Shown: positions 33,201 to 36,200 of the stretch, piece by piece
Position numbering within the stretch: position 1 is the first letter of the stretch
Layout of the letters: the number at the start of each line of letters is the position of its first letter
Source of the DNA: Dysidea avara
Lineage: Eukaryota
Reading direction: 5' to 3'
NCBI RefSeq assembly: GCF_963678975.1
Contig: NC_089281.1
Coordinates: 27,793,151 to 27,857,150 of the forward strand
Length of the DNA: 64,000 nucleotides
The notes under the pieces: model-generated
The model's database searches: none
The model's input: the letters and a program-made list of their open reading frames with translations, nothing else
What the model was told of the DNA's origin: nothing
Translations under genes and position numbers: made by a program

Positions 33201-36200
33201 ACACTTAGAATAGACAAAACAAAACTTAATATAAGTTGACTACTTTTTAGCAAAAAACTCTACAAGTATAGAAAACATAACTTACAGATATTACTTCTAG
33301 CTACACATATATTAGGTAACCAACCTGACCATTGCGAATATCTCGTACATAAATTCCCTCGTTTTTGTTCAGAGCAACGGCTTTCCTGATAGACACACCA
33401 CAAAATGACACTATATACATCACATAATTAATACCTTGACTCAATGATGTTTACTTCGATTGGTGGAACATAATCTCTGGGACCGCTAATCATCCACCTG
33501 TCGCCAGGGTTACGCTTTACCTTGTCTCCTATAACCAACATGGTAACAAAATAATAGCAACATGCATTACTTCAAATCTTCCCAGACGTATACTGCAAAA
33601 TCTTGCTTTTCTTGCAAGATCTTGCATGAATATTGCAGAATTGTTTCTGCTGGTACCACATTCTGACAAAGACCTTATACCAACTTCCAGAGCACCTTTA
33701 CCGGTGTCTAATCATTATCAAACCAACACACGGGACTGAAATGATAATGGTTTTTTAGCAATTGAGTATTAAGTGTAAATTAAAAGTTTTATACCGGTAA
33801 CTAGACCATAATAAGCAGCTTACAACTTTTACAAGTAACAGTAACAAGCAAAATTCACCAATCAAACTCCATGACAAATGCATCAAGTAAGCTGATAAAT
33901 AATGAATCGCACAGTCTTAATGAGTAATTATATGAGTATCTGAGTTTTTTCCAGCCCATAAGCAAATTACATTACCTTGAGGGGTAATATCAACGAATTC
34001 TTTCGCAGCTGTTAGAAGCAAGGCCTCATCTGACAGGAGTACAAAGACATTCTGAATGCCTTCAGCCAGTTTCTCTCCTAACAGCATATATAAAAATGAC
34101 ACAGAGAACGACTTAGGATTACAACTGACCAGGAGAAAGGAAGAAAGAATCCGGTCCTTTCTTTAGCACTCTAGTTCCTAGCTGTGGTCTACCATCAGAC
34201 CCAACTGGGTCCAGCACTACACAATATTGACGTGAATTGAGGACCACCATGTTGTCAACTTTGACCAGTTCCTATGGCAACATGATGATGTCATCAATGA
34301 TCATGTGATACACTAGACACACCTCTGTTACATCAGGGATGTAAGTCCAACTATCATCCATTGTAACAATCCATTCATCACCAACAATTCTGGTGATATA
34401 GAATAGAAGTTACTTTCACAATACATTATATGCTAGTGATATTGTACCTGTTCTTGCCAAACTGGTCTTTGTGAGTCTCATTGGAGCGGAGGTGCAAAGC
34501 AGTTTGGTTGGTTAGAGTGTAGCAAGTCTCCTTTGAAACTAGCTGTAAATGGACAATGGTATGAGATTACACGTACATGTATATGTGAAAAACGCATACA
34601 TGCACACACACACACACACACACACACACACACACACACACACACACACACACACACACACACACACACACACACACACACACACACACACACACACACA
34701 CACACACACACACACACACACACACACACACACACACACACACACACACACACACACACACACACACACACACACACACACACACACACACACACACACA
34801 CACACACACACACACACACACACACACACACACACACACCTCTTCATACACTCCAGGTAGATAAGCTCCAAACTTTCTCACTAGCCATTCCTGTCCAGTA
34901 TGTCTATCACTATAACACAGTCACACAAGTAGCCTACCAACCCCTCAAAGACTTACACTCCCTCGTCATCAGTAAACCCTTGCTTGGCACGCATCCTCAG
35001 TGCCTCCCCTCCACCAATTATCAATGGATTAACCATCCTAACCACCTCCTACAAGAAGACACACATGACACAGTGAGGTATACATGAATTAGCAGTACTA
35101 CAACAGTAATATTGAACTTGTTGGTTGGTACATAAAGTAACGGAGAAATTCAGCAAATTGACATACATAAATCACCTGAGGAGGTTAGTCACGCATCAAA
35201 CATATCGTTGTCTTGAAGAGAATGCAATCCATTCAACCCCAGCACCTCATTATTGATATAAAGTATTCTAACATGCAAACCATGCAACACTTTATGTTGC
35301 TTTCCTAGCAACAAAACAAACGCTACACTTCTTGTAAAGACAAAGGTACAGTGTAGTGAGCGTACTTCATTATAATGCTACCAATGTTAAGCGCCATGTT
35401 TACCTGTACAATCACACATAGCAACAATTCATAGGCTACTGACACCTGACCAACATCCTTAGTCTGCCCATATTAAGCAAATAGTGATGTATGAATATAC
35501 TCTACATATACATTAGCTAAACATGTCTGTAAAATATAGAACACAATGGATGTTGTAGTAAGGCTACTTTTGCTTACGTTGCCTAGTATCCACCATAGTC
35601 TAATAGGTACATAAACTAGCTACTCACTATGTCCTTAAAATATGGCAAGTAATAATAGCCAAGAGTATTAAACCATGTAGCAGTGTGTGAAAAATAATTG
35701 CTTATAGTGATAAGGATATTTCAGTAGCCATTTAATTAGCCACTAAACTAAGCAAAAACATTACAATTCTGATACTGGTAAACACATAAAGCTGATACAC
35801 ATATTTGTGCTACTGCTTTCTTGAGTGAAGTTGAGTAATGTCTGGGGTCCTTTGTCTATAACGACTGGTAAATAGTTAGGTGGACAACATGAAAACAGGA
35901 AAAAATTACTATGTTGCCATTTCTCATAAATGTACAGTTATTTATGCAACCAATTTTCACATATAATATGCCATTTGATACCATTAAAATATTACAAAGA
36001 GAGAACTTACCACTTCTGGTCGTGGGACGTAGGATAACGGTCCACGTAGTTGCCATTCTGAACCAGCTGGTCTAGAAACTTCATTGTCATCCGTGAAATC
36101 AGTCAGGGCTCGTAAATGGATGCCGTGGTTCTGCTTGACAACTGGCAACTTCTTAATAGCTGGCCTGTAATCTAACAAAACAACATTAGTAGGAAAGCCA

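Follow-up and report, generated by a model that had tools for sequence, protein, structure and literature searches.

Introduction

Intronic microsatellites that adjoin a splice site are a known kind of element. The (TG)m tract of CFTR intron 8 and the (GT)16 tract of apoA-II intron 2 are bound by TDP-43, and their length modulates splicing via TARDBP (PMC10078293, PMC4691745). For the polymorphic GT repeat in intron 2 of human NCX1 (SLC8A1; Gabellini 2001, Eur J Biochem 268:1076), PMC3862624 gives the repeat as required for splicing activation. In certain teleost and lamprey introns of the (AC)m-(GT)n type, AC repeats close to the 5′ splice site pair with GT repeats close to the 3′ one, and the pairing bridges the intron (Lin et al. 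2016, PMC4691745), and 9537 human tandem repeats tied to splicing variation (spl-TRs) have been catalogued genome-wide, with TARDBP as the most enriched RNA-binding protein at the intronic ones (PMC10078293). A further instance of an intronic microsatellite at a splice site is described here in a stretch of 64,000 nucleotides from Dysidea avara (NC_089281.1, positions 27,793,151 to 27,857,150 of the forward strand; "the window", to which all coordinates below refer), where a perfect GT array of 118 units begins at the predicted start of intron 7 of the gene for the major vault protein (MVP), and where the first unit of the array is most probably the 5′ splice site of that intron.

The likeness to NCX1 intron 2 lies in an intronic GT repeat on the transcribed strand, which in NCX1 is polymorphic and linked to the splicing of its own intron, and the difference is that the MVP tract has 118 units, stands in a sponge-like genome and is known here from sequence alone. 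The NCX1 repeat itself is said to be short, of some tens of units, and near the 5′ splice site. CFTR and apoA-II share with MVP intron 7 the presence of (UG)n in the pre-mRNA directly beside a splice site; their tracts, however, are found at the 3′ splice site and affect the exon that follows, whereas the MVP tract extends from position +1 of the 5′ splice site and is 5–10 times longer. The teleost and lamprey introns resemble it in that their ends carry dinucleotide repeats, which sometimes obscure the normal splice signals, but MVP intron 7 has GT at its 5′ end, no AC partner and, in the predicted fold, no bridging helix. Bridging of the teleost AC/GT type was rejected for this intron, given the opposite orientation, a 60-nt tail holding no AC run, and a repeat that is unpaired in the centroid fold. 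The CA repeat of eNOS intron 13 is reportedly a variable-length, hnRNP L-bound and length-dependent splicing element (Hui et al. 2003, among the references of PMC1177943); it is CA in the eNOS RNA as against GU in the MVP transcript, and its mechanism is not applicable here. The human spl-TRs represent the same general phenomenon as has been proposed for this locus, length polymorphism together with splicing variation, but as a statistical association in human tissues.

A perfect GT array in the MVP gene

The array was delimited with Tandem Repeats Finder (TRF), by regular expression search and by direct reading.

34603..34839, minus strand: perfect microsatellite, (GT)118 + G on the coding strand and (CA)118 + C on the plus strand, 237 bp

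TRF gave a period of 2, 118.5 copies, 100% matches and 0% indels for 34603-34839, and the regular expression returned (CA)118 at 34603-34838 followed by C at 34839. In the initial annotation a perfect (CA)117 had been reported under the span 34600-34912; the repeat is indeed perfect, the count fell one unit short, and the span comprises the repeat and exon 7. No other perfect dinucleotide run of at least 8 units (at least 6 for GC) was found by regular expression in the 64 kb, and the array is by far the longest and purest of its kind in the window, the runners-up being two arrays of ~25 units with 74–79% match. Window G+C is 37.9%, and a pure dinucleotide array of 237 bp cannot have arisen by chance. 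The exact number of units hinges on the assembly; that a GT array stands at the donor does not hinge on how long it is. When metagenome contigs were scanned for exact matches to exon 7 plus the repeat start, they yielded no second allele, and a protein-guided scan of the same contigs for a second allele or a close relative returned a single locus at 34% identity, which is uninformative.

The surrounding gene was located by tblastn with human MVP (a query sequence confirmed by its matches, and matched by a Cebus protein), which placed MVP segments on the minus strand from ~36600 to ~27260. A database search with the concatenated segments had only major vault proteins among its matches, the closest homologues being sponge MVPs (Amphimedon queenslandica 55–57%, Geodia barretti 58% identity), with other animals at 45–49%; with a best identity this low, the collections searched hold no annotated protein or transcript of this very gene. 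For the gene model, GT/GC-AG pairs were enumerated between neighbouring homology anchors, and the joined peptide was scored against the sponge proteins; all exon borders, including the 28 donors, are of this homology-based kind. The slash in the sequences below marks an exon–intron border.

27240..36790, minus strand: MVP coding region from ATG to stop, 853 aa in 29 coding exons separated by 28 GT-AG introns, low end approximate
34910..34956, minus strand: intron 6, 47 nt, AGT/gtaagt ... ttatag/T, an example of the gene's minimal-intron class
34840..34909, minus strand: MVP coding exon 7, 70 nt, encoding 24 residues together with 2 nt of exon 6 (tblastn, junction search, assembled coding sequence)
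34543..34839, minus strand: intron 7, 297 nt, phase 0, made up of the 237-nt repeat and a 60-nt tail
34448..34542, minus strand: MVP coding exon 8, its peptide read for 31 residues (homology, junction search, assembled coding sequence)

In the assembled coding sequence, the frame starts with the ATG at 36790, where the first 20 residues resemble MSRKIIGILPNYYVHVLDL of Amphimedon, and is open through all 29 exons (853 aa) to a stop at ~27240. Five Pfam domains were found in the 853-aa model, all above the cut-offs (Vault 7.5e-55, MVP_shoulder 1.2e-41, Vault_3 3.3e-35, Vault_2 1.1e-25 and Vault_4 1.6e-08). Judged by this homology and by the presence of both Vault and shoulder domains, the minus-strand gene is a sponge-like MVP, the identity already proposed in the initial annotation, and by tblastn it is single-copy in the window. 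When coding exons are numbered from the ATG at 36790, exon 7 indeed comes seventh; it has the acceptor ttatag/T in phase 2, and its region is 65–77% identical to human, Amphimedon and Geodia MVP (tblastn); an independent junction search returned the same borders, 34840-34909, as had been drawn before.

In Amphimedon queenslandica (GL345169.1, 20190-72591), at least three tandem, near-identical copies of MVP exons were observed, and the annotated 813-aa product is seemingly spliced across copies, with a gene span of 46 kb.

The first repeat unit as probable 5′ splice site

The minus strand reads ...GGA GTG TAT GAA GAG/GTGTGT..., and the first GT after the conserved ...VYEE (GVYEE) codons is the first unit of the repeat, at 34839-34838.

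34838..34839, minus strand: predicted 5′ splice-site GT of intron 7, first repeat unit, GAG/GTGTGT (junction search, donor weight matrix, conserved phase-0 position)

On the side of exon 8, ttacag/ (acceptor CAG at 34545-34543) is followed from 34542 by CTA GTT TCA AAG, encoding LVSKE.... A junction between these two points gives 13 residues from EE to TALHLR, as in human MVP, with matching spacing in Amphimedon and Geodia, and predicts a transcript in which ...GTATGAAGAG is joined to CTAGTTTCAAAG (exons 7 and 8, ...GAAGAG/CTAGTT...).

To estimate donor strength, a position weight matrix (PWM) was derived from the gene's 27 remaining donors, and the donor of intron 7, left out of the matrix, was then scored against it. 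The sequence GAG/GTGTGT scored 9.85 bits, in the upper third of the 28 donors (4.53–11.78 bits), level with introns 9 and 14 and exceeded by five donors. Other GTs inside the repeat scored far lower, at 0.98 bits for TGT/GTGTGT and 3.07 bits for GGT/GTGTGT. An identical donor 9-mer is modelled for intron 9, which opens with gtgtgtct after an exon end at 34323, and for intron 14, which opens with gtgtgtaa after an exon end at 33082; intron 23 has AAG/GTGTGC, and GTAAGT is present in only 5 of the 28 donors. Against CAG/GTAAGT, the sequence GAG/GTGTGT is the same at positions -2, -1, +1, +2, +5 and +6 and has a purine at +3. The view that GTGTGT makes a notably non-consensus donor, taken in the initial annotation, is not borne out by a score of 9.85 bits, by the sharing of the 9-mer with introns 9 and 14, or by the six consensus matches. 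On these signals intron 7 qualifies as a GT-AG intron with a predicted donor strength within the range of the gene.

With three GT units only, the modelled donors at 34323 (intron 9) and 33082 (intron 14), both on the minus strand, resemble unexpanded proto-microsatellites.

Anatomy of intron 7

34543..34602, minus strand: non-repeat tail of intron 7, 60 nt, ending in the acceptor CAG (AG at 34544-34543) and also holding a branch-like CTCAT (34565-34561, its A at -20) and a stretch rich in pyrimidines

The branch-like CTCAT, the pyrimidine-rich stretch and the CAG all fall within the last 25 nt of the intron. Closer to the array, purines and pyrimidines go on alternating in the repeat's register through the first 11 nt of the tail (CATGTATGCGT), and past a TTTT another 20 nt (CACATATACATGTACGTGTA) alternate perfectly; these stretches suggest a decayed flank of the repeat. 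The shortest intron of the MVP gene has 47 nt and the longest 1563 nt; the median is 72.5 nt, and 15 out of 28 introns do not exceed 74 nt. Stripped of the array, intron 7 would be a typical minimal intron of the gene, at 60 nt. Since the donor 9-mer (-3 to +6) and the branch and 3′ splice-site region lie outside the variable part, slippage alters only the length of the intron, in agreement with what had been noted for this locus at the outset.

Exon 7 has 70 nt, so that its skipping shifts the frame, and retention of intron 7 reads as (Val-Cys)39, followed by 12 residues and a stop. Folded as RNA, the segment from exon 7 through intron 7 into the beginning of exon 8 gave a minimum free energy of -48.2 kcal/mol (z = -2.8); in the centroid fold the entire repeat is unpaired, and the prediction contains no defined structure. 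Searches of the window for Rfam families and for tRNAs came back empty, in or near intron 7 as elsewhere.

Intron 15 of the same gene (32415-32659, minus strand, 245 nt) has an (AC)7 run 13 nt past its donor (AAG/gtatggatggtacacacacacacacatg), a GU-rich core with an imperfect (TG)25 at 32548-32502, and another CACACACAC near its 3′ end. It is superficially like the teleost AC-GT layout, and folds at -108.7 kcal/mol, a value nearly equalled by shuffled sequences; the comparison of the fold with shuffles (z = -1.19) gave no evidence of selected structure in this intron.

An old intron and a lineage-specific repeat

The genomic loci of homologues were taken and their exon borders were mapped around the position of intron 7.

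Amphimedon, three paralogues: phase-0 intron after ...EE, 623 and 464 nt where measured, donor GAG/gtgagg, next exon GTA GTA (VV)
Geodia: intron after ...EE, ~126 nt, donor GAG/gtatat
Asterias amurensis, starfish: intron at the same boundary, donor GAG/gtaagg
Cebus, primate: no intron after ...EE
Tegillarca, bivalve: no intron after ...EE

The intron is shared by sponges and a starfish, and its position is therefore older than the split of sponges and bilaterians, with loss in some lineages. No GT array was found in the orthologous introns of Amphimedon, Geodia and Asterias, and the GT expansion is therefore specific to the present lineage. By this comparison of sequences, intron 7 appears as an ancient, phase-0, U2-type intron, and the repeat as a lineage-specific and comparatively recent addition.

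Probable origin of the array by expansion of an ordinary donor

Given the repeat itself, the homology-based exon borders, the conserved position of the intron, the donor scores and the intron sizes, we infer that the array originated by slippage from a GTGTGT seed and that it is neutral: the repeat is probably a tolerated and hypervariable insertion that grew from an ordinary donor. A (GT)3 donor, such as is modelled for introns 9 and 14, would have served as a proto-microsatellite able to slip, and replication slippage in this lineage would have carried it to 118 pure units. The coding sequence (...GAA GAG) would pin the 5′ edge of the array, with the first unit acting as splice donor. Changes in length would then alter only the distance from the donor to the branch point, leaving the donor 9-mer, the CTCAT, the pyrimidine-rich stretch and the CAG unaffected, and the lengthening from 60 to 297 nt, a size well inside the range of the gene's introns, would have been unopposed by selection. 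The purity of the array suggests ongoing and rapid slippage. Strict neutrality is an assumption in this account.

For now, the locus illustrates cleanly how a microsatellite can grow out of a GTGTGT donor and inflate a minimal intron five-fold, its splice signals intact. The repeat should be a highly polymorphic genetic marker within a conserved gene, and gene finders may stumble on introns of this sort in annotation; the locus leaves the knowledge of splicing and of vaults unchanged.

Alternative explanations

Four models of the junction between exons 7 and 8 were scored against a profile hidden Markov model (profile HMM) of 110 MVP homologues.

EE/LV, unit 1 donor with CAG acceptor: 1201.8 bits
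EEV/F, junction shifted by 4 nt, unit 3 donor TGT/GT with acceptor CTAG/: 1201.8 bits
Donor 6 nt deeper, adding Val-Cys: 1197.3 bits
Upstream donor GGA/GTGTAT, dropping VYEE: 1182.8 bits

The upstream donor GGA/GTGTAT, which removes VYEE, was ruled out by its loss of 19 bits in the profile.

Several points weigh against a neutral array with its donor in unit 1. The profile HMM ties the unit 1 junction and the 4-nt-shifted junction, both at 1201.8 bits; the exon borders come from homology, and use of the unit 1 donor in vivo is what we infer from it; an array of 118 units with no interruption is uncommon in both length and purity, and could point to selection that keeps it pure or to a unit count distorted in the assembly; and long human UG tracts near splice sites measurably affect splicing (PMC10078293). 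A donor other than unit 1, either shifted by 4 nt (exon end 34836, exon start 34538, ...YEEVFSKE...; predicted transcript join ...GAGGTGT to TTTCAAAG) or placed at a deeper in-frame GT that adds Val-Cys dipeptides, is nevertheless improbable. The shifted junction leaves the protein length unchanged, equals the favoured one in the profile and restores a V after EE, as in 63 of the 110 homologues (L stands there in 1 of 110), and every third GT of the repeat is in frame, with no stop codon in that frame. On the other hand, its TGT/GTGTGT reaches 0.98 bits in the PWM against 9.85 for GAG/GTGTGT, where the lowest modelled donor of the gene has 4.53; it requires a second AG, 4 nt past a good CAG; and it displaces an intron whose phase-0 position is common to three other animals, while the donor 6 nt deeper costs 4.5 bits in the profile. 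Unit 1 is preferred over unit 3 because of the splice-signal scores and the conserved intron position, the protein profile being equal. The donor would lie inside the repeat in every viable model, and unit 1, named as the donor GT in the initial annotation and here favoured by the junction search, the donor PWM and the conserved position, is most probable on this homology-based evidence. That the array is in part an assembly artefact, its length or purity mis-called or the site collapsed or expanded as a low-complexity sequence, has very little probability: dinucleotide runs of such length are hard to assemble and to size, and 118 uninterrupted units are extreme beside the other arrays of the window, but both flanks join conserved MVP exons in the right order, frame and spacing, and the flank of the array shows a graded, decayed repeat edge.

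A functional role is somewhat less remote than either of these, and still unlikely: (GU)118 would be a length-dependent splicing regulator, a TDP-43, CELF or MBNL-type orthologue would coat the 5′ end of the intron and modulate U1 access or intron definition, and length alleles would tune MVP output. Because exon 7 skipping shifts the frame and intron retention ends in a stop, the effect under such regulation would be on/off, via unproductive transcripts. As to the binding factor, (GU)118 from +1 of intron 7 provides more than the (UG)n of at least 6 units beside a splice site in the pre-mRNA, and binding of a TDP-43 or CELF-type protein is possible. hnRNP L, which had been put forward as a binder of the GT tract, is said to bind CA repeats in RNA, and is ruled out by strand, as the MVP pre-mRNA is transcribed from the minus strand and carries (GU)118 and no (CA)n. 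The great length and purity of the tract and its place right at the splice site speak for such a role, and regulation finds precedent in UG-repeat binders (TARDBP, CELF1 and MBNL1; PMC4691745, PMC10078293), in UG/GT repeats being the class of tandem repeats most strongly tied to human splicing variation, with TARDBP the top enriched RNA-binding protein (PMC10078293), in the silencing of CFTR exon 9 by the intron 8 (TG)n via TARDBP (PMC4691745, PMC10078293), and in the NCX1 intron 2 GT repeat, reported as necessary for splicing activation in what PMC3862624 relays of Gabellini 2001. Against it, the feature is not conserved, with no repeat in the orthologous introns of Amphimedon, Geodia and Asterias, and the intron 7 donor is strong by the gene's own standard. 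Splicing regulation by the repeat is unproven here, and two premises for it, a weak donor and hnRNP L binding, fail. Were the tract to modulate splicing, the control of splicing by UG repeats known in vertebrates would be found in a sponge-grade animal too, where natural alleles would form a series for its study. The more specific proposal, in which allele length in a hypervariable array governs the efficiency of 5′ splice-site use, by way of a UG-binding protein or of the intron-definition kinetics of a 60-nt intron stretched five-fold, making MVP dosage heritably variable, is more doubtful still; if true, it would be an early-metazoan counterpart of vertebrate TDP-43/UG-repeat regulation.

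Other features of the window

At 61540-61720 on the plus strand, an open frame DRIFNNVYHDSEPFERVKYGVLNIG follows ttttatag/ and ends in ATTG/GTCTGTGTGTGTGTGTCTGTGTGCGTG...; this may be a candidate second intron running straight into an imperfect GT array (TRF 61616-61666, 25.5 copies, 74% match), and if the intron is real, GT arrays seeded by donors may be a common feature of the genome.

Upstream of MVP, an open reading frame (ORF) at 40770-41135 on the plus strand is weakly like the fibronectin-III/membrane-proximal region of receptor-type tyrosine phosphatases (Fn3_PTPRU 7.2e-05, just under the cut-off), and the neighbouring gene may be a receptor of this phosphatase-like type. A 293-aa ORF at 58720-59967 on the plus strand encodes an FHA domain at its N terminus (Pfam 3.6e-08) and a motif of cysteines and histidines, CPICLGLFPVSELVAHSELC; comparable motifs stand elsewhere inside the same ORF (CIHCLQDYTVAELVDHVNIC) and, in other frames, a short way downstream of it (CQHCLGLFPLDEIVSHSLTC, CMHCFRDFPISELVRHMPEC), which suggests part of a multi-exon FHA and zinc-finger protein. 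On the minus strand, a 119-aa ORF at 57933-58292 gave weak Sel1/TPR-like matches, all under the Pfam gathering cut-offs.

A minisatellite at 14400-14850 (30-bp unit, 90-bp higher-order period, ~9 copies, 82–93% match) yields long spurious ORFs on both strands, with repeats of the PLPYS type. Tetranucleotide microsatellites are present as (TCAG)16 at 47730-47793 (96% match) and (CAGT)9.8 at 10553-10591 (91% match).

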